Positions 10,223 to 30,700 of a DNA stretch of 40,119 nucleotides are shown one piece after another. The DNA is from a virus, in the IMG/VR virus record IMGVR_UViG_3300019132_000007, positions 1-40,119 of that record. One strand, given 5' to 3'. Position 1 is the stretch's first letter, and each line of letters begins with the position of its first letter. The translations under genes were made by a program, and so were the position numbers. The notes beneath the pieces were generated by a model. That model was not told the DNA's origin. It saw nothing but the letters and a program-made list of their open reading frames with translations, and made no database searches.

Positions 10223-10486
10223 TCAAGGAGACTTGTTTCCTTTGTCTGTGGAGCGCCGGCCATCACTCTTTCGGCGCTCAGCAACAACTTGAGCGCACGA
10301 TGCCTGGTCACTCACGCCGTAAATCCCCGCGTAAGTCACAGGAGAAGTCCGGACAATCACATCCGCCTGCTCCGGACGAGGCTTCCGTTCACGGCGACGC
10401 CATGAAGCAACTGTTCGAAGCTTTACCTTCCACAGAGCAGCAGCTTCTGCATCTCCAATCTGTTTTATGTACTCAACCAGAGTCAT
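10223..10486 (-). CDS. Cro/YdaS-family HTH regulator
   Basis: MTLVEYIKQIGDAEAAALWKVKLRTVASWRRRERKPRPEQADVIVRTS. Divergent from the cI-like gene. I chose the start with the GAAAGG RBS. Confidence 0.65.
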   Translation of the reverse strand: MTLVEYIKQIGDAEAAALWKVKLRTVASWRRRERKPRPEQADVIVRTSPVTYAGIYGVSDQASCAQVVAERRKSDGRRSTDKGNKSP

Positions 10487-10512
10487 CGGGCGACCTTTCT
10501 TTAAATCCATTT

Positions 10513-10527
10513 TACACGTTTCGTGCA
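10513..10527. promoter_or_regulatory. Operator OR-1 (TACACGTTTCGTGCA)
   Basis: Imperfect palindrome TACACG-N3-CGTGcA. It overlaps the -10 (TCTAAT, 10532-10527) and start region of the minus-strand cro promoter. Confidence 0.55.
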
Positions 10528-10545
10528 TTAGAGCAAGGTGGATTT

Positions 10546-10560
10546 TACGCGCAACGTGTC
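10546..10560. promoter_or_regulatory. Operator OR-2 (TACGCGCAACGTGTC)
   Basis: Same motif 33 bp from OR-1. It overlaps the -35 (TTGCGC, 10554-10549) of the cro promoter, which has a 16-nt spacer. Confidence 0.5.
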
Positions 10561-10584
10561 ATTAATGCGCGATACAGTCCGCGC

Positions 10585-11145
10585 ATGACCGAGGATGAGT
10601 ACAAAATTGAAATTGGGAAACGAATTGCCGAGGCCCGCAAAAGTGTTGGGCTAAAGTTGCGCGAATTGGCAGACCGTGCGGGAATTAAGGTCTCGACACT
10701 CGGGATGTATGAACAGGGCCGGCGCAAGCCAGGGAATGTCGAAATTATTGCGATCGCTAAAGAGACTGGCCAAGACCCGGCCTATCTAATGTGCCTCAGC
10801 GAATCAAATGTCAGAAGTGCCCCGCAATGGCTAGACCCCAGGGTTGAAAAGCTACCGGACATGTTCAAGGAGGCGATTCGACTCAAGGCTGAGCGCTATC
10901 TTGAAATGGCTGACAAGTTCCCCGTTAGCATATTCTTCATTCTCTCTACGCCGACATCAAAGAACTATGATGATTGGGAGCGTGGGGTCGAAGCTCATTA
11001 TAGGAGCATCGTGGAAGGGAAAAAACAGGAATGGCCCGAACACGAGCGTAGACAGGCGCCAGACAGACGGCAGCACAACATCCCCGGCGCTATCGGAACA
11101 ATGACCCAATCACCAGACAAAAAGACAAGCAAAAAAACCGGGTGA
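10585..11145 (+). CDS. CI-like repressor (XRE HTH) without a recognisable S24 peptidase domain
   Basis: MTEDEYKIEIGKRIAEARKSVGLKLRELADRAGIKVSTLGMYEQGRRKP. Divergent from cro. I saw no G-S-M or Ser-Lys dyad pattern in the C-terminal 110 aa. Confidence 0.7.
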   Translation: MTEDEYKIEIGKRIAEARKSVGLKLRELADRAGIKVSTLGMYEQGRRKPGNVEIIAIAKETGQDPAYLMCLSESNVRSAPQWLDPRVEKLPDMFKEAIRLKAERYLEMADKFPVSIFFILSTPTSKNYDDWERGVEAHYRSIVEGKKQEWPEHERRQAPDRRQHNIPGAIGTMTQSPDKKTSKKTG

Positions 11146-11151
11146 TCAATC

Positions 11152-11167
11152 TCCCATATTTATGGGA
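11152..11167. promoter_or_regulatory. Palindrome A TCCCATATTTATGGGA
   Basis: Perfect 16-bp dyad 7 nt after the cI stop. Confidence 0.4.
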
Positions 11168-11197
11168 TATGCGGCGACGTATCGCGGCTGCACAATC

Positions 11198-11211
11198 CCC
11201 ATATATATGGG
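11198..11211. promoter_or_regulatory. Palindrome B CCCATATATATGGG
   Basis: Perfect 14-bp dyad with the same half-site as palindrome A, 12 nt before the ATG at 11223. Confidence 0.4.
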
Positions 11212-11222
11212 AGAAGCATTTG

Positions 11223-11480
11223 ATGCCTGAGAACAAGCCGGCGAACGTCACACGTATCGCAGAGTGGAAACACAAAGACACCATCGAGGCGCTGGAATAC
11301 CTTCTGGCAATGGCCAAACGAGGCGAAATCACCGGCTTTATCTACGGTGTTCGCGTTGGCGACTGGCATCACGGGATCGGCGTGACCGGGCACTATCGAG
11401 ACGACCCAATCGCCGGTCTTGGTGCTACGGGGCGCATTTTCTCAGCTCTTAATCGCCTTGCAGAGCAAGCGTCAGAGTGA
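11223..11480 (+). CDS. Hypothetical protein (85 aa)
   Basis: MPENKPANVTRIAEWKHKDTIEALEYLLAMAKRGEITGFIYGVRVGDWHHG... GGGAGAAG RBS. Confidence 0.5.
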   Translation: MPENKPANVTRIAEWKHKDTIEALEYLLAMAKRGEITGFIYGVRVGDWHHGIGVTGHYRDDPIAGLGATGRIFSALNRLAEQASE

Positions 11481-12262: not shown

Positions 12263-12337
12263 GCTCCTTCGCGGGCGCTTTGCTTTTCTTGGCGCGATAA
12301 TGTTCCATTATCCCTCCACATAATTCCCCTCCCAATC

Positions 12338-12363
12338 AATCCCGCTTCGGCGGGATTTTTTTT
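12338..12363 (+). terminator. Strong intrinsic terminator ending the moron
   Basis: AATCCCGC-TTCG-GCGGGATT followed by T-run TTTTTTT. Confidence 0.85.
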
Positions 12364-12409
12364 CGCCCTCATTTTCCGCAATCCACTTTACGCAAACTTT
12401 TTCACCGTT

Positions 12410-12452
12410 TACACATTTCGCACTTGCACCTTTCCACATTTCGTGTAAACTT
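12410..12452 (+). promoter_or_regulatory. PL-like early-left promoter with two CI-type operators
   Basis: TTGCAC (12424-12429), 16 nt, TAAACT (12446-12451). Operator-like sites are TACACATTTCGCAC (12410-12423) and CACATTTCGTGTA (12435-12447, reverse complement TACACGAAATGTG). Both share the TACACG-N3-CGTG motif of OR. Confidence 0.5.
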
Positions 12453-12497
12453 ACTTCCATCAAGCAATCGTTCCAGCAACGCAAGGGGGATTGGGAA

Positions 12498-12647
12498 ATG
12501 ACTGCCACAAAAGAGCAATACCGCGCCTACCTTCAAAGCCCTGCAGTGTGGGTAATGAGCTATCAGCAGTGGCTTGCAGCGAAGGCGTTCATTGAAGGCG
12601 CAATGACGATTGAGCAAGCGTTTGAACTCCACCGGAGGATGAAGTAA
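12498..12647 (+). CDS. Hypothetical protein (49 aa), first ORF of the early-left operon
   Basis: MTATKEQYRAYLQSPAVWVMSYQQWLAAKAFIEGAMTIEQAFELHRRMK. GGGGGA RBS. Too short for the ORF track. Confidence 0.45.
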   Translation: MTATKEQYRAYLQSPAVWVMSYQQWLAAKAFIEGAMTIEQAFELHRRMK

Positions 12648-12649
12648 CG

Positions 12650-13300
12650 ATTTCAAAAACGCGCGTCAATGCGACTGCAGGCGCAAAGACAAGATGGCCG
12701 AGTTTCAGCGGGTTCTCGGCGAGTTTTACCTGTTTTGCGGCGTGTCCCTTAAGTGCGACCGGGACAAAACAGGCGATCCGGTGGGAAGCCGGAGCTAACA
12801 GGCGAGGCGGTTCGAGGTTCTGGATTCGATGGTCTGCACGTGAACGTATGCACGAACAGATGGCATTGCCCAGCTCCAGCACAGCCGCCTCACCTGTTGG
12901 CGAATGCGCAGGCTGATGCGCAGCAGAGGGACGCGGCGGGGGCGATGCGCACGGACTCCCGATAACGCCCGCCAAGCCGGAGATCAGCACCGGCCGTCAA
13001 CACACAGAGCCCTTCGGTGCAAAGGAGGGGCGACAAGTCAGGGGCGGCGTGGAAAGCGACACGCAAAGAGGGATCAGCCGGACCTCAGAAATCCAACCGG
13101 AGATGGCTAGGAATGTGAGCCAGCCCACGACGGGCAAAACACATCGCAGGAGTAGCGCCCTGCCCCCTGACTTGTTGGCGAGCCGCATGACTGGAATCCC
13201 TTGCCGTGAGGACGGTAAGGCGTTGGACGAGCCCCGATGACGCCGACTTACTTGGCCGAGAAAAGCGCATGCGAAAAATGAGGAAGGTAGCCCGGTGCGC
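12650..13300 (+). ncRNA. Candidate large structured non-coding RNA / structured operon leader (unclassified)
   Basis: About 650 nt with no credible ORF in an otherwise tightly packed genome. Many predicted helices, including long-range ones: 12797-12810/12885-12898 (13 bp with 1 mismatch), 13033-13044/13164-13175 (12 bp), 12729-12737/12765-12773 (9 bp) and 13199-13207/13212-13220 (9 bp with a GAGG loop). G-T wobble positions pair only on the plus strand. Confidence 0.4.
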
Positions 13301-13327
13301 CAACACCAAACAACAAGGAGGAATGAC

Positions 13328-13498
13328 ATGAACAAGCAGCTTATCCGACGCGCCGTAGTTCTGTTTCCACGCACGGACTACACCGACCCCGAAGCGGTAC
13401 GCCACGCTCGCCGCAACTTGCTGCGCTCTGTCGTGATGCTGCGTTGCTCTCCTGGTGGCAGCAAGTGGATTTTGGATCAGAAGGTGGCTAGGCAGTGA
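13328..13498 (+). CDS. Hypothetical protein (56 aa)
   Basis: AAGGAGG RBS 7 nt upstream. MNKQLIRRAVVLFPRTDYTDPEAVRHARRNLLRSVVMLR. Confidence 0.5.
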   Translation: MNKQLIRRAVVLFPRTDYTDPEAVRHARRNLLRSVVMLRCSPGGSKWILDQKVARQ

Positions 13499-13526
13499 CA
13501 AGGATTCCCACTAGCCGCATGGGGCG

Positions 13527-13790
13527 ATGGCTCCGGTTCTTGCGGCGGATCTGGAGGCGCAAATGAGCGGGGCGAAACGCAGTTTTATCGAATTCTGTGA
13601 GCAACAGGATAAACAAGAGCGACAAGAGCAATACGAGCGAAACCTTAAACAGAGCGAGAGAATAAATGAGCATAAGCACAGTGATATTGGGCGAATCGGG
13701 AACTGGAAAATCTGCCTCGATGCGCAACCTCGACCCGGCAAACACGTTACTGATTCAGGTCGTCAAGAAGCCACTCCCCTTCCGTTCTAA
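13527..13790 (+). CDS. Questionable ORF (87 aa) overlapping the ATPase gene by 125 nt
   Basis: The N-terminal part looks like a coiled coil (KRSFIEFCEQQDKQERQEQYERNLKQSERINE). The frame continues out of frame into the next gene, so the true extent is unclear. Confidence 0.25.
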   Translation: MAPVLAADLEAQMSGAKRSFIEFCEQQDKQERQEQYERNLKQSERINEHKHSDIGRIGNWKICLDAQPRPGKHVTDSGRQEATPLPF

Positions 13791-14325
13791 GGGATGGTCT
13801 TACTTCAACCCGGAGACCAACAAGACCGGAAACATTTTTGTTTCCGATGACTGGCAAGTAATCGGCACTCTGATGCGTAAGACAAAGCGCAGGGTGATCG
13901 TAATCGACGACTTCCAGTACGTGCTGGCTAACGAATTCATGCGCCGTTCCGAAGAACGCGGCTACGACAAGTTCACCGAGATTGCCAAACATGCGTGGGA
14001 AGTGTTCAACGCTGCCAACTCACTGCCCGACGATGTCCGCGTGTACCTCATGAGCCACACGGCGACGGACGAGCAAGGCAATACCAAGATCAAGACGATT
14101 GGAAAGATGCTGGACGAGAAGATTACCCCGGAAGGTCTTTTCACAATCGTCCTGCGGACTGTAGTCACCGACAAAGACTACTTCTTCAGCACCAAGAATA
14201 ACGGCCATGACACGGTAAAAGCCCCGATTGGCCTGTTTGATTCGGATCGCATTCCGAATGACCTCGCTGCCGTCGATGCGGCAATTTCATCCTACTACGA
14301 ACTGACAGGAGCAACAGAGCAATGA
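13666..14325 (+). CDS. Sak4-like RecA-core ATPase (AAA_24-type phage recombination protein)
   Basis: N-terminal Walker A VILGESGTGKS and Walker B-like VIVIDDFQ. The size and pairing with a downstream SSB-like gene are typical of Sak4 modules. Confidence 0.65.
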   Translation: MSISTVILGESGTGKSASMRNLDPANTLLIQVVKKPLPFRSKGWSYFNPETNKTGNIFVSDDWQVIGTLMRKTKRRVIVIDDFQYVLANEFMRRSEERGYDKFTEIAKHAWEVFNAANSLPDDVRVYLMSHTATDEQGNTKIKTIGKMLDEKITPEGLFTIVLRTVVTDKDYFFSTKNNGHDTVKAPIGLFDSDRIPNDLAAVDAAISSYYELTGATEQ

Positions 14326-14951
14326 GCGCATACACCCTTGACACTGAAGCAGCAAAGCAGGCAGACAACGGCAGCGGACGCATTCAGGAGACCGGCAAGT
14401 ATATCGGCCAGTTCACCAAGGCGAAGAAAGTCGTCAGCAACCAGGGCACGGAAGGCATCGAATTCAGCTTCGAATCGAACCACGGACAAAGTGCAGATTA
14501 CCTCTCCGTCTGGACGATCAACAAAGACGGCAAGCAAATCTACGGGTTCAAGCAGCTTATGGCGCTGATGACCTGTCTGCGCGTCAAGACCATCGACAGC
14601 AAGGCCGGCGAGGTCGAAGAGTACGACACTGTTGCAAAGCAGGTCGTCAAGCGCAAAGCAGAAATCTACCCTGCCCTGATGAACAAGCCCATCGGCGTTC
14701 TGCTGCAAATGGAAGAGTACGAGAAGAAAGACGGCTCTACTGGCGAGCGCCCCGTATTTGCCGGATTCTTCGATCCGCAGACCGAACAGACGGCAGCAGA
14801 AATCTTGGAAAAACGCGAGCCGGAAGCGCTGACAAAGATGGTTGCAAGCCTGGTGCCGATCAAGAAGCTGAAAGGTTCACGCCCCGCCCCGGCTGGCGAT
14901 CAGCAATATTCGACGCCGGATAACTTCGTTTCGGACGATATTTCCTTCTAA
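14322..14951 (+). CDS. DUF669-like single-stranded-DNA-binding protein with an SSB-type acidic tip
   Basis: ETGKYIGQFTKAKKVVSNQGTEGIEFSFES is a DUF669-like N-terminus. The C-terminus ...DNFVSDDISF mimics the bacterial SSB tail DDDIPF. ATGA coupling to the Sak4-like gene. Confidence 0.55.
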   Translation: MSAYTLDTEAAKQADNGSGRIQETGKYIGQFTKAKKVVSNQGTEGIEFSFESNHGQSADYLSVWTINKDGKQIYGFKQLMALMTCLRVKTIDSKAGEVEEYDTVAKQVVKRKAEIYPALMNKPIGVLLQMEEYEKKDGSTGERPVFAGFFDPQTEQTAAEILEKREPEALTKMVASLVPIKKLKGSRPAPAGDQQYSTPDNFVSDDISF

Positions 14952-24841: not shown

Positions 24842-25023
24842 TTCTTCCCACGCTTTTTCAGCTCATTACGAATCAAGAAGAACGCCTGAAGAGCCAGATA
24901 GGCTAATGTCGCAATGGCCACCCAATCGTTCAGCGTCAAATCAAGAAAGACGCTCGACCCCGTGACGGCAACAGGAGGCGCAGCCTTCGCCGCCGCAGTG
25001 GACAATTCTTCTTTCATCTTCAT
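24838..25023 (-). CDS. Holin (probable pinholin) with a dual-start MKM motif
   Basis: 61 aa. An MKMKEE dual start, a weak TMD1 AAPPVAVTGSSVFL and a strong TMD2 WVAIATLAYLALQAFFLI. Basic C-terminus KKRGKK. The stop overlaps the endolysin start. Confidence 0.7.
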   Translation of the reverse strand: MKMKEELSTAAAKAAPPVAVTGSSVFLDLTLNDWVAIATLAYLALQAFFLIRNELKKRGKK

Positions 25024-25043
25024 GGCCTTCTTTTTGTTGAGGT

Positions 25044-25071
25044 CAATAAAAAACCCGCACGAGGCGGGTTT
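25044..25071 (-). terminator. Intrinsic terminator upstream of the lysis cassette
   Basis: Minus strand reads ACCCGC-CTCGT-GCGGGT followed by TTTTTTATT. It is nearly identical to the hairpin at 3577-3600. Confidence 0.7.
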
Positions 25072-25078
25072 GGAGTGG

Positions 25079-25327
25079 TTACTTGCGCATCTCAGGCGCG
25101 AAGTGGTATCGCGTTAGCTCTTTCTTGTACGCGTTCACGCAGTGGTTCGGCCCTTGGAACGGATAGAACAAGGCGTCGATCAGAACCTTCCAGAATTTGT
25201 ACGGGTAGCGGTGGCCGAGCCGGCCGCAGCGTGACGAAAGCGTTTCGTCGGGCCATCCTCCCGTTGCTGCGTTCGCAAGTTGGTCGATGCCAATCAGGAC
25301 ATTCCTAAAGTATCCACGCGCCGCCAT
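25079..25327 (-). CDS. Hypothetical protein (82 aa)
   Basis: GGGGG RBS. MAARGYFRNVLIGIDQLANAATGGWPDETLSSRCG. Confidence 0.5.
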   Translation of the reverse strand: MAARGYFRNVLIGIDQLANAATGGWPDETLSSRCGRLGHRYPYKFWKVLIDALFYPFQGPNHCVNAYKKELTRYHFAPEMRK

Positions 25328-27741: not shown

Positions 27742-30700
27742 GCCAATACCTCCGAACGCATGGCGTTACCGCCTTCTGTCACGTTGTCGAACTGATCAGC
27801 CATCTGTTTGATGCTGTCCTTTGCCTGCTCCAGTTCGACGCGCAGTTTTTTGTTCTCGTCGACCAATTGTTCGAGCAAAGCGTTCGTCCGCTCGCGGTCC
27901 GCACGCTGCATGTCGACATATGGTCGAGGTGTAATCTCTTCACCCTTGTGAACAATCGCCGGCATGTCGTAGGGGACGTAGCTGGTGCCAACTGCAAATC
28001 CAGGTAGCTTATTGGCTTTCGCATACGCCAATGCCTTGATCTTGTCTTCGGTCGTTCCTCCAGAGAGCGCCCCGTTGATGAAGTCCTTGACCACTCCATC
28101 CCAACCCTTCGGGTTAGTGGCCAGCGCGTTTTGCCAGAATGCAGCGCCGGCCGCATCCGGCGCGCGCCCGAGGATGTTGGAGTACAGGCCGGTGACCGAG
28201 TCAGGGAGCGTCCCCGTCTGTCCGGAAATCACGGATTGCGCCGTCGCGGCCTTGCCTATCGCTGTACTCAGGGCAGCCAGTGCGGCCGGAAGTGGCATGA
28301 GATCGGTGCGAATCCCGCGCAGCGTGTCCACCTGCTGTTGCGCATAGGCCAGTTCCTGATCCAAGCGGGACATCTGGTCTTTGTAGGCCGACTCCGTCGA
28401 CTTCAGCTGGTCTTCCAGGGTCTTCAGAGTCTTTTCTTCAACGGTGAGCTGGTTGCCGGTCAGTTTCGCCAGTTCCTCAACTTTCGCCCGCTGAATCAGC
28501 TGGTCGCGCTGGTAATCGATGAAACTGGAGTACAGGTCTTCGGCTGGCTGTGAAATGATGTTCAGTGCGTTCGACAGTTGGTCCGCATCGGGGAACACGC
28601 CACCAGCGCGTGCAATTGCCAGGGCCGTTTCAATCTCGGCCGACGCCGTCGCACGATCGGATGCACGTTCGCTTGGCAGGCGCATCCGGTCAAGCGTCGA
28701 TTTCAGTGAGGTCGACAGACCGAATAGCTTTCCTACCGACCCTGTGACGTCCTTAATACGGTCGTTGACCAGCTTCACGGCGTCGTTGTAGCTGGCTGTA
28801 ATGCTCTTGCGATCCGCGTCGATCGAGCGTTGCACGGCCGCAAAGGCAGAATCTACGCCGAGCATGGCGTTATCCAAGATAGATCGTGCTGCGTCCCTTT
28901 TTGCGTCCGCCTCGCGCTTGGCGTTCTCGATCACCTCGTCCGCCATCCTTTTGCTGTAGTCGGCCACTTGGGCAAACGCAGGCGCAACCGCCAGCAATTG
29001 CCCATAAAGTTTTGCCCCGGCTTCGGAGCCAAGGTCGAGACCCCTCACCAGCTCCTTGAACTCGTCTTTCGTGTCGACGCTGGCGAAGCCAAGTTCCGCC
29101 ATCCGATCTTGGACTGCCTTGATCGTGGGGGCAATCTGCTCTGCTTCGGTCAGGAAGTTCTGTGCAAAGAAGGTCGTTCCGGATGCAAGCGCATCGATGC
29201 CACCGGCAAGATCAATCACACGCTGGCGCGCATCTGTCGAAGCCAACCCGAGAGAACCGAATGCCGAATCCATGTTCTGACCAAGCGTTACCGCGACAGC
29301 GTTGGTCGCGGCAAACACAGTGTTGAGACGAGCAAAGGCATCGATTACCGTTTCGCCAGACTTCGCCGCTACCTCCAGCTTCTTGAAGTCCAGGGCCTCG
29401 CCAAAGACCTTCAGGTATCCAGCGTTCTCGACCAATCCATCGCCCAAGCCGAACAATGCCTGCGTAAATGCCGCCAGCTTGCCTTCGCTTTCCGATACGC
29501 CGGCCAGCTGCGCGCGCTGGGCATCGAAAATCCGGATCATGTCGTCGATGAATGGATCCAGTGGCGATGAAATGCGCGTTTGGTCGACGACGACGCCCGC
29601 AAAGGACCGCTCGCCATCTTTCGTGTTCGTGTAGTACCGGCTGGCCTGTTGCTGTGCCGTGTCGATCGACGTCCGGAAGGTATCGACAAAGGCTTGTGCC
29701 ATGCTGTCGGACACGCGCGCAAGTGCGGCTTGAATCGCCTTCTCCTTGCCGGCCGCATCCAGGTCGGCAAGTGCCAGTCGGAATTCGTAGCTGAAGCCCT
29801 TCAACAGTTCGCCGCCGGCACCGACCGCCTCCCCGAGATTCGAGAAGTTTTGGTACATGCCCTTGATGGCGTTGGTGAAAACCGAGTTCACTTCGGCATC
29901 AAGGGCGGACGGGACAGTTTTGTCCCCCTTGAACCAGCCCCCCTTCTTGAACTGGTAGGCGTTGCCCGCAAACTGATCTTCAGTGATCGTCCCCATTACA
30001 CCGGAGCCGACTACCTTCGAGCCGAATGCCCGGTTGACCGCGGCTCCGACCACACCAGCAAGCGGCCCCGCAAATGCGCTCGCAATTGCGGCAACCTCGT
30101 TCACCCCCTTGACGTTATAGCCGCCGCTGAGGCCCTTCGACAAACCGTACCCGAGGAATGCATTCCCAGCCATGCTCGCGAGGCCACTGAGGGAGAGGCC
30201 ATCTGTAGCCATTCCACCAGCGAACCCAGTCCCGCCTTCTGCTGACACCCAGCCTGACGGAGTGCCATTTCCCATGCCTGAGATGCCCGTGTTTTGCCAG
30301 GCGCGGCTCAACATTCCCGAGAATCCACCCTCGAAGCCCGTGGAAAAACCATTCCAGAGCGTTTTCCCCATCGAATAGAGATCCCCGCTTTGCATCAGGT
30401 TGCTTGTGTCGCCGGTTCTCCCTGTCAAAGCATTCGCGACAGCCGGTCCAGAAAACACTCCAGCAACACTTGCCACAATCTGGATTACGTACTTTTTTAG
30501 GAAGGTCTGGTAAAGAGCATCGGCAAGCGCCGTTTTGAGTGTGTTTCCGATGGATTTGCTGAACGACTTCCAAGCATTCTCGCCATGCGTAAGCATGTCC
30601 CGGAAACCTTCCCGGAAATCGTTGTCGAGATTCGAGATGATGGTCTTCCACCGGCTGAGGACCGGCTCCATCTGCCGGTTCGCATACCACTGGTCGAACT

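Follow-up and report, generated by a model that had tools for sequence, protein, structure and literature searches.

An untranslated gap behind a PL-like promoter region of a phage genome holds an array of recurrent RNA modules, two of them tRNA-like in plan

What fills the 680 nt between the first small gene and the recombination genes in the presumed early-left operon of a phage, if not a further gene? The question is posed by the IMG/VR virus record IMGVR_UViG_3300019132_000007, which was analysed over its whole stretch of 40,119 nt (hereafter the window). An earlier inspection of the letters and open reading frames (ORFs) alone, referred to here as the sequence-only reading, had described positions 12650-13300 as ORF-poor and rich in helices, and had considered a large phage non-coding RNA or a structured leader. 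The gap proper (12648-13327) is a tandem array of four modules, each with its own long-range closing stem (P1). Three of them are members of motifs that recur elsewhere and are denoted type-1, type-2 and type-3; the remaining one is termed module A.

The gap does not encode protein. Its 3-base periodicity power is 1.44, as compared with 17-22 in the genes of Sak4 and of the single-strand DNA-binding protein (SSB), and its G+C content is flat across the codon positions. By a codon log-odds model, for which the genes of the window served as training set, no frame of the gap has a coding score, and none of the ORFs of at least 20 amino acids (aa) within 12648-13294 has a good Shine-Dalgarno (SD) site, while the flanking genes at 12498, 13328 and 13563 have one. 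The gap ORFs contain no Pfam domain, the six-frame translation finds no relative among 5.8 billion proteins, and the two frames with few stop codons are ordinary for their composition (P = 0.34 and 0.25). The poverty in ORFs noticed in the sequence-only reading is hereby borne out. As to composition, thymine accounts for 5-10% of the plus strand at 12918-13150 and for 14% across the gap, versus 22% in the whole window.

All eight helices listed in that reading were found again at their positions, and five of them (12905-12910/12917-12922, 12976-12980/12990-12994, 13033-13044/13164-13175, 13047-13051/13060-13064 and 13199-13220) are conserved parts of the recurrent RNA families. The threefold occurrence of ATGCGCA, likewise pointed out there, exceeds chance. 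Compared with shuffled controls, the folding energy of the whole gap is moderately better (z = -2.99 for the plus and -2.22 for the minus strand, 150 shuffles), and that of the only two local blocks that stand out, 12790-12905 (z = -5.65) and 13030-13178 (z = -4.87), is strongly better; both blocks are also prominent among 200-nt segments taken across the entire 40 kb. Segments of very low z on the plus strand occur outside the gap as well, namely at 29801-30000 (-5.96), within a 1723-aa ORF, at 24901-25100 (-4.19) and at 11101-11300 (-4.02).

The type-1 motif, the architecture of which is given in Table 1, carries most of the comparative evidence. Its family profile matches the window at 12895-13004 with E = 4.5e-12, an nhmmer alignment places 90 loci onto 12890-13005, and the exact 20-mer block GCCGGAGATCAGYACCGGCC is present in at least 120 IMG/VR contigs, the chance expectation being about 0.3 matches according to a rough estimate. 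The 5' block AAUGCGCAGGCUGAUGCGC forms a hairpin of 6 bp with GGCUGA as its loop, and window positions 12903-12921 agree throughout with the consensus. Although this block lies outside the search pattern, it is nearly invariant in 102 distinct sequences, with 100-102 of the 102 agreeing at each position of the loop, which is complementary to the loop of the second hairpin. The 3' block GCCGGAGAUCAGYACCGGCC is matched exactly at 12976-12995. Whereas these stems and loops are nearly invariant even between phages whose hosts are distant, copies differ freely in P1 and in the middle domain, which measures 12 to about 170 nt and varies like the flanks.

Variation in the stems is compensated. In a 64-sequence alignment 92% of the type-1 cells are paired, whereas only 29-43% are if the partners are slid against each other; double changes occur at nine of ten P1 pairs and at all five pairs of hairpin 1, and the observed values were reached in none of 500 shuffles. 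The covariation in homologs that the sequence-only reading had made a test of its proposal is thus strong in P1 of type-1 and of type-3 and, in each type, in one further stem that played no part in finding the members. In hairpin 1 and the pseudoknot 27 G-U pairs stand against a single A-C, from which it follows that the RNA strand is the plus strand of the window, and the claim of selected RNA structure on this strand stands. The same had been argued from G-T wobble positions in two of the helices. This argument holds in part: T12796-G12899 and G13032-T13176 pair on the plus strand only, but the C12803/A12892 mismatch could pair only on the minus strand. The single-sequence fold of the window copy of type-1 reproduces the consensus structure at an energy z of only -0.68; since its structure covaries nonetheless, screens based on folding energy would miss elements of this kind.

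Module B, at 13031-13177, is a divergent member of type-3. A syntenic stretch in three loci (L031, L004 and L005) aligns with window 13033-13201 in nhmmer. Between the window stem (ACAAGTCAGGGG/CCCCTGACTTGT) and the one in these loci (ACACAGAAGCGG/CCGCTTCTGTGT) there are five double changes, by which the perfect 12-bp pairing is retained. The type-3 block GGCGGCGTKGAAGGAMACGC is found without mismatch in at least 120 IMG/VR contigs. In family members the closing stem encloses an inner GG/CC and then, after a linker of 2 nt, a hairpin of 5 bp that has GAAGGA as its loop; a variable domain follows, and a T-like hairpin, GCCGG[UAUCAAGC]CCGGC, abuts the 3' strand of P1. This last hairpin was not used in collecting the members; it is conserved and covaries, with 87% of its stem cells paired as compared with 25-52% after sliding. 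Where the family has the 5' block GGCGGCGUKGAAGGAMACGC, the window has GGCGGCGUGGAAAGCGACACGC, in which the stem is kept and the loop comprises 8 nt instead of 6. The T-like hairpin of the window, GCAGG[AGUAGCGC]CCUGC followed by CC, retains its stem by a compensated change as well as its position and the CC, while the loop sequence differs. A pattern of the 12-bp stem of module B has no match in viral or genome contigs. Its matches in metagenomes belong to an unrelated low-GC inverted-repeat element of about 135 nt (L081-L084), the ends of which are formed by the same pair of 12-mers as the module B stem, in contigs that are otherwise unrelated (chance expectation below 0.1, roughly estimated).

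Type-2 is defined by the blocks CCGCAUGACUGRAAUC and GUAGCCCGG, which are 65-95 nt apart inside a closing stem, and the window sequence fits this definition. Scanning IMG/VR yielded 47 stretches, of which, as read from the listing, about 23 are true members with both blocks and complementary flanks and about 19 are false positives in coding sequence. The inner block GGACGAGCCCCGAUGAC, common to the window and L390, L393 and L426, marks a sub-family.

Module A is a rod built on an inverted repeat of 17 nt with 88% complementarity. It folds with -54.8 kcal/mol, and none of 200 shuffled sequences is equally stable. Its 3' arm resembles that of module B (80% identity over 25 nt), and the stems of the two modules differ by three compensated changes, as read from the repeat listing; a scan with a pattern of the shared 3' arm returned chance hits only. 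Homologs of module A comprise one weak relative (L202). Upstream of it, the hairpins within 12692-12780 are at chance level on the plus strand (z = -0.32), and apart from one weak alignment extension in L182 no homolog of them was found. Both are overlapped by a 34-aa ORF at 12694-12798 (MAEFQRVLGEFYLFCGVSLKCDRDKTGDPVGSRS) of protein-like composition, with a weak ribosome-binding site and without relatives.

The modules are conserved as units, their cores being 90-98% identical while the flanks are at about 55%, which is background similarity. Mostly they are found singly; pairs occur in several orders, and the succession type-1, type-3, type-2 of the window is the only triple among the loci collected, where the window array is also the densest and largest. 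Neighbouring modules overlap by a few bases, which belong to the 3' arm of the first closing stem and at the same time to the 5' arm of the second (window 12895-12901 and 13173-13177; also L157 and L194), which could allow alternative pairing or coaxial stacking. As it was put, the proposal of the sequence-only reading finds no support at this point. The region is not a single nut- or put-like element enlarged about ten-fold, but an array of separate modules of about 100-150 nt that in other phages are usually single and stand in many contexts; nor is it an orphan RNA of 650 nt, as its modules recur in other phages in PL leaders, in tRNA operons and antisense within structural operons.

Table 1. 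Features of the window in and around the gap.
Feature	Position	Strand	Basis or remark
Third operator-like copy, TTTACACGTTTCG	10511-10523		divergent repressor/Cro-like region
Strong terminator, end of upstream repressor operon	12338-12363	+	terminator scan
PL-like promoter/operator region	12406-12452	+	operator-like repeats, candidate promoter hexamers
Operator-like repeats, TTTACACATTTCG and TTTCCACATTTCG	12408-12420 and 12431-12443	+	direct-repeat search
First operon gene, 49-aa orphan ORF	12498-12647	+	SD AGGGGG 8 nt upstream; positive codon score 16.1
Two small unclassified hairpins (12697-12702/12715-12720; 12729-12737/12765-12773)	12694-12775	+	minimum-energy fold
Module A, 108-nt rod-like imperfect hairpin, outer stem 12794-12810/12885-12901	12794-12901	+	inverted repeat and folding
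Type-1 motif	12895-13002	+	family profile, nhmmer, covariation
Type-1 P1	12895-12902/12995-13002	+	8 pairs including one G-U
Type-1 AA linker	12903-12904	+	
Type-1 D-like hairpin, UGCGCA[GGCUGA]UGCGCA	12905-12922	+	
Type-1 variable domain	12923-12973	+	followed by AA at 12974-12975
Type-1 T-like hairpin, GCCGG[AGAUCAGCA]CCGGC	12976-12994	+	
Type-1 loop-loop pseudoknot	12912-12916 with 12984-12988		GCUGA complementary to UCAGC
Type-3 motif (module B), divergent member	13031-13177	+	perfect 12-bp repeat, z = -4.87, homologs
Type-3 P1	13031-13044/13164-13177	+	
Type-3 D-like hairpin	13047-13051/13060-13064	+	followed by multi-branched variable domain
Type-3 T-like hairpin	13146-13150/13159-13163	+	
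Type-2 motif	13173-13305	+	inverted repeat, shared blocks, fold
Type-2 P1	13173-13180/13298-13305	+	extended by 13183-13185/13293-13295
Type-2 block, CCGCAUGACUGGAAUC	13183-13198	+	
Type-2 hairpin	13199-13220	+	
Type-2 block, GUAGCCCGG	13287-13295	+	
SD AAGGAGG and conserved 56-aa gene (ATG at 13328) after the array	13314-13498	+	SD match 6/6
Sak4	13666-14325	+	PHROGs
SSB	14322-14951	+	PHROGs

Finding these relatives depended on the query. Blastn with the region 12300-13700 returned no match in GenBank phages and PLSDB plasmids, the conserved blocks being of insufficient length for it; they were recovered with a 53-nt consensus query. Nor did blastn give a homolog of the gap in 80 IMG/VR and 53 GTDB loci collected via Sak4. 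The first weak relatives were obtained by nhmmer of the gap against the Sak4-collected loci, and in nhmmer L063 and L111 share two blocks with 12899-13006. A literature search for the strings of the conserved blocks and for descriptions of the motifs found no paper printing or describing them. Phage phi80 reportedly has a small RNA that is a substrate of RNase P; none of the conserved blocks is present in the PL region of this phage.

With the 53-nt query type-1 was detected in 276 GenBank phage records, temperate and lytic, from hosts such as Klebsiella, Pseudomonas, Escherichia, Salmonella, Burkholderia, Erwinia, Aeromonas and others. Of 5426 complete E. coli genomes 1313 carry it, and none of the places listed has an annotated RNA feature. 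It further occurs in Stx phages and in 724 plasmids; most of the latter come from E. coli, are non-mobilizable and measure about 92-115 kb, and the one inspected has the gene layout of P1. In phage P1 (NC_005856, 69820-69844) and the P1-like RCS47 the motif lies under a coding sequence annotated as 'plp, putative lipoprotein', and in mEp460 (L267, 2203-2756) under two minus-strand coding sequences annotated as 'hypothetical protein'. These annotations may be erroneous calls over an RNA element. The mEp460 genome further contains an isrK RNA (RF01394, 67 bits; L267, 78-154, minus strand) near a Rha-type gene.

With respect to its neighbours, type-1 is associated with tRNAs. A tRNA lies within 1 kb of 12 of the 123 IMG/VR copies, in all 12 cases on the same strand. 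A P1-like plasmid has the motif behind tRNA-Asn and tRNA-Thr, and in L246 a complete tRNA-Pro (581-666) is nested in the variable domain of a type-1 copy ending at 736. In mEp460 type-1 stands directly after the repressor gene, as it does in the window, and in Acidovorax phage AP1 (L436) it is located at 2001-2134 inside an unannotated gap of about 965 nt (1696-2661). This AP1 gap follows an Xre-type regulator and two small genes and holds further GC-rich, apparently structured sequence, a layout equal to that of the window. Type-1 is co-oriented with the next long downstream ORF in 72 of 95 cases; the genes downstream are unrelated to each other, and many copies are far from promoters. In Klebsiella phage ZC2 (L438, 2001-2088) a copy antisense to the flanking structural genes occupies a 534-nt intergenic gap, and in some lytic phages type-1 may be a free-standing RNA gene.

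In order to relate the modules to known RNAs, their plan was compared with that of tRNA. Type-1 and type-3 share with tRNA an acceptor-like closing stem of about 8 bp, a 2-nt linker, D-like and T-like hairpins and a loop-loop contact, and their 5-bp T-like stem abuts the 3' strand of the closing stem. We interpret the GG-containing loop of type-3 as facing a UCRA-containing loop, as in tRNA. Unlike tRNA, the modules lack an anticodon arm, the length of their middle domain lies between 12 and about 170 nt, the loops are off the tRNA consensus, and in type-1 five Watson-Crick loop pairs take the place of the contact between D- and T-loop. Rfam family RF00005 has no hit in the window or the modules. 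Embedded as they are in polycistronic transcripts and tRNA arrays, the modules resemble tRNA processing signals. Signals of this sort, situated in longer transcripts, include RNase P substrates and the t-elements of plant mitochondrial mRNAs.

The remaining likenesses are more limited. Lambda nutL and the RNase III site of the N leader lie in the early-left leader, the position that the array appears to have, and the near-continuous duplex of about 19 bp in module A is a possible RNase III substrate; the conserved modules, however, are multi-helix junctions rather than simple hairpins, and neither boxA nor boxB was identified, although no search was aimed at them. GOLLD and ROOL RNAs often lie beside tRNAs or enclose them. 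The array is comparable to them (for the names see 10.1101/2024.12.08.627333) as a long multi-domain phage non-coding RNA, but has no match in Rfam, and its domains are autonomous and mostly single. HK022 put consists of two stem-loops in about 70 nt without a closing stem, with putL just downstream of PL (PMC9378689). Termination is suppressed by put through contact with the zinc-binding domain of the RNA polymerase beta' subunit. Like put, the type-1 copies of the window, mEp460 and AP1 are structured RNAs encoded in cis behind PL, put doing so in a lambda-like phage without a dedicated antiterminator protein; in contrast to put, the modules have a closing helix and type-1 also occurs far from promoters. 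YrlA-type Y RNAs of bacteria and some phages are non-coding and mimic tRNA by near-invariant D-like and T-like hairpins, and YrlA of M. smegmatis is cut by RNase P, so that bacterial tRNA-like non-coding RNAs can be substrates of this enzyme (PMC4201824). In YrlA, though, the T and D arms are permuted around an acceptor-like stem-loop and Ro60 (rsr) is a neighbour, whereas the modules keep the tRNA order and no Ro60 hit was obtained among the window proteins scanned. The DNAVirus_N catalogue of candidate structured RNAs, which draws on the same IMG/VR data and the same kind of evidence, comprises 8495 candidates, many of them tRNA-like, and its main text, to which the comparison is confined, describes none with the present features (PMC10690425).

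Rfam, which the sequence-only reading had proposed to consult, returned no match at gathering score in the window and none in the modules at E values up to 10. Types 1, 2 and 3 match no family of Rfam 15, including GOLLD, ROOL, C4, ribozymes and riboswitches; a canonical type-3 copy has no match, and in six motif-bearing loci only tRNAs and isrK were found. Several other identities were considered for the gap and dropped: a CsrA sponge (GGA is not enriched), a retron (no reverse transcriptase domain among the window proteins scanned), an integron attC site (the sequence, read by eye, does not match the attC core pattern), a miniature inverted-repeat transposable element (no target-site duplication seen) and a group I or II intron (no Rfam hit).

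From the sequence evidence, the gap may be an untranslated spacer in a repressor-controlled early-left transcript, with four independently folding modules that act as tRNA-like punctuation. We favour this reading, tentatively and at something short of even confidence, because of the tRNA-like plan of type-1 and type-3, the link to tRNAs, the PL position in mEp460 and AP1 and the conservation of the modules as units. Transcription, cleavage and an effect on expression are what we infer beyond these data. The early-left promoter would drive transcription of the gap as a spacer that separates the first small gene from the recombination genes, and the modules would function in cis, at the RNA level. 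At their borders the early transcript would be cleaved, either by the tRNA-processing machinery, with RNase P on the 5' side of P1 and other nucleases on the 3' side, or by RNases specific for structure. The flanking cistrons would thereby become independent of each other in stability and translation, and compact tRNA-like RNAs of high stability would be set free. The dense folding of the array might in addition keep the 680-nt untranslated stretch from exposing Rho sites.

A number of observations weigh against such punctuation. Ten type-1 copies (about 10%) are antisense to both neighbouring genes, which suits an RNA gene standing by itself better than a punctuation mark in cis. The stems and loops are nearly invariant and thereby suggest a partner that reads their sequence; recognition by RNase P has no need of this. 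P1 of type-1 gives no strand preference (15 G-U against 23 A-C), and P1 of type-3 was located by a complementarity search, which inflates its pairing percentage by construction. As to the likeness to tRNA, the stacked acceptor-like and T-like helix measures 13-14 bp instead of 12 bp, ARAGORN reports neither a tRNA nor a tmRNA in the window and calls none of the modules a tRNA, and type-2 and module A are not obviously tRNA-like. Finally, the modules leave the first 145 nt of the gap unaccounted for.

Part of this evidence would be better explained if the modules were trans-acting tRNA mimics, that is decoys or sponges for a factor that recognises the tRNA elbow or acceptor arm, such as a tRNA-targeting defence nuclease, a modification enzyme or a translation factor. 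The tRNA-like layout and the near-invariant hairpins next to a variable P1 and middle domain would be expected of a ligand for a sequence-specific partner; copies inside phage tRNA arrays, free-standing antisense copies, some directly followed by terminator-like hairpins (as read by eye), and unrelated downstream genes agree with it, and YrlA with Ro60 sets a precedent for a protein-binding tRNA-mimic non-coding RNA (PMC4201824). No gene co-occurs with the motif, however, and most copies are sense within operons, so that we consider mimicry rather doubtful, even though it is compatible with the processing model. A put-like role in cis, by which the modules would modify RNA polymerase or block Rho and let transcription read through the leader and the early-left operon of about 9 kb, appears unlikely. 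The putL position is matched in the window, mEp460 and AP1, the first ORF is not recognised as N-like, and 680 untranslated nt would otherwise be open to Rho, tRNA operons being likewise untranslated. Yet the type-1 profile has no match in two HK022 stretches (L269 and L270, 21000-33000) that span the early region, put has a different architecture (PMC9378689), the operon contains no convincing plus-strand intrinsic terminator to be overridden, many copies are promoter-distant, antisense or in lytic phages, and the tRNA-like layout would remain unexplained.

Two further alternatives are distinctly improbable, the second slightly more so than the first. One or more modules could be self-cleaving ribozymes of an undescribed class that cut phage transcripts, including tRNA precursors. 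A scattered phage distribution is typical of hammerhead, twister and HDV-like ribozymes, and the modules have a distribution of this kind, independent of genes and close to tRNAs, together with compact, P1-closed multi-helix junctions, near-invariant unpaired bases and a pseudoknot. Against this, no Rfam ribozyme matches even at the most permissive E value, and the conserved bases are mostly situated in hairpin stems and mutually pairing loops, suggesting a structural role, with no evident cleavage site. The elements could also act as DNA, be it as hairpins of single-stranded DNA, protein-binding inverted repeats or small non-autonomous mobile elements, with the RNA structure incidental. The lack of strand bias in P1, the highly identical cores in unrelated flanks, copies between terminator-like hairpins (again read by eye) and the single-strand DNA annealing and binding proteins encoded next to the gap would suit this, but it is the closing stems that vary and the inner blocks that stay constant, opposite to what holds for the terminal inverted repeats on which a transposase acts; moreover the window modules show no target-site duplication, the G-U excess in hairpin 1 and the pseudoknot favours a one-strand RNA, and orientation follows genes and tRNAs. 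The least credible proposal, which was rejected, takes the gap for a decayed gene or for a frameshift artefact of the assembly, with helices that are due to chance. Overlapping plus-strand ORFs do step through the three frames, one of which has only two stops, but periodicity is absent, the stop counts are typical of the composition, no frame has a protein relative, and three modules have covarying non-coding homologs in many phages.

The genomic setting on which the punctuation reading draws is that of a temperate phage or prophage with about 57% G+C, the Sak4 of which has its nearest relatives in phages in Burkholderiales-type genomes. Ahead of the operators the plus strand encodes a repressor-type helix-turn-helix (HTH) protein, inside the ORF 10300-11145, followed by three small genes and the terminator. 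This ORF of 281 aa is probably overlong at its 5' end, since its HTH match begins only at about residue 87 and one of the operator copies falls within it; on the minus strand a Cro-like ORF occupies 10223-10528, and the leftward operon encodes a CII-like regulator and a DnaD-like replication protein. The operator-like 13-mer TTTMCACRTTTCG is present in both early control regions, at the three positions given in Table 1. Behind the operator repeats, the 49-aa ORF, the array, the 56-aa gene, Sak4 and SSB follow one another on the plus strand, continued by a DNA methyltransferase and, further on, the integrase. Because terminator, operator-like 13-mers and plus-strand operon stand in this order, the placement of the gap behind a PL-like promoter in an early-left operon, as first proposed, is reasonable, and a repressor-type operator region does precede it. 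The promoter hexamers themselves, TTGCAC (-35) and TAAACT (-10), are candidates read by eye that a consensus promoter scan did not flag. A terminator scan found no convincing plus-strand intrinsic terminator inside the gap or the operon. PHROG, Pfam and homolog searches with the 49-aa ORF gave no match, and an N-like protein was not recognised, this first ORF having neither a PHROG nor a Pfam hit. No database relatives of the 49-aa and 56-aa ORFs were found, although locus L003 encodes a homolog of the 56-aa protein, and exact-protein look-ups of four window proteins returned no record.

The observation proves real, and it is of greater interest than an isolated structured leader would be: three phage RNA families that recur have no match in Rfam and no annotation among the copies checked. 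With the same reserve as for the punctuation of the early transcript, types 1-3 may be undescribed families of a superfamily of anticodon-less tRNA-like RNAs in temperate and lytic phages of Proteobacteria, type-1 being carried by about one quarter of complete E. coli genomes, by P1-like phage-plasmids and by Stx phages. A specific factor of the host or the phage would recognise their near-invariant elbow hairpins, and the modules would constitute a portable device for transcript punctuation or for countering tRNA-directed host functions. If they are truly undescribed, they would rank among the more widespread unannotated RNA structures of well-studied phages, and likely spurious ORF annotations such as plp and the mEp460 hypothetical proteins would be corrected. 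As the families are open to direct study in E. coli model systems, their function is experimentally accessible, and, should the proposal be true, they would provide an example of tRNA-like punctuation or mimicry from bacterial viruses.

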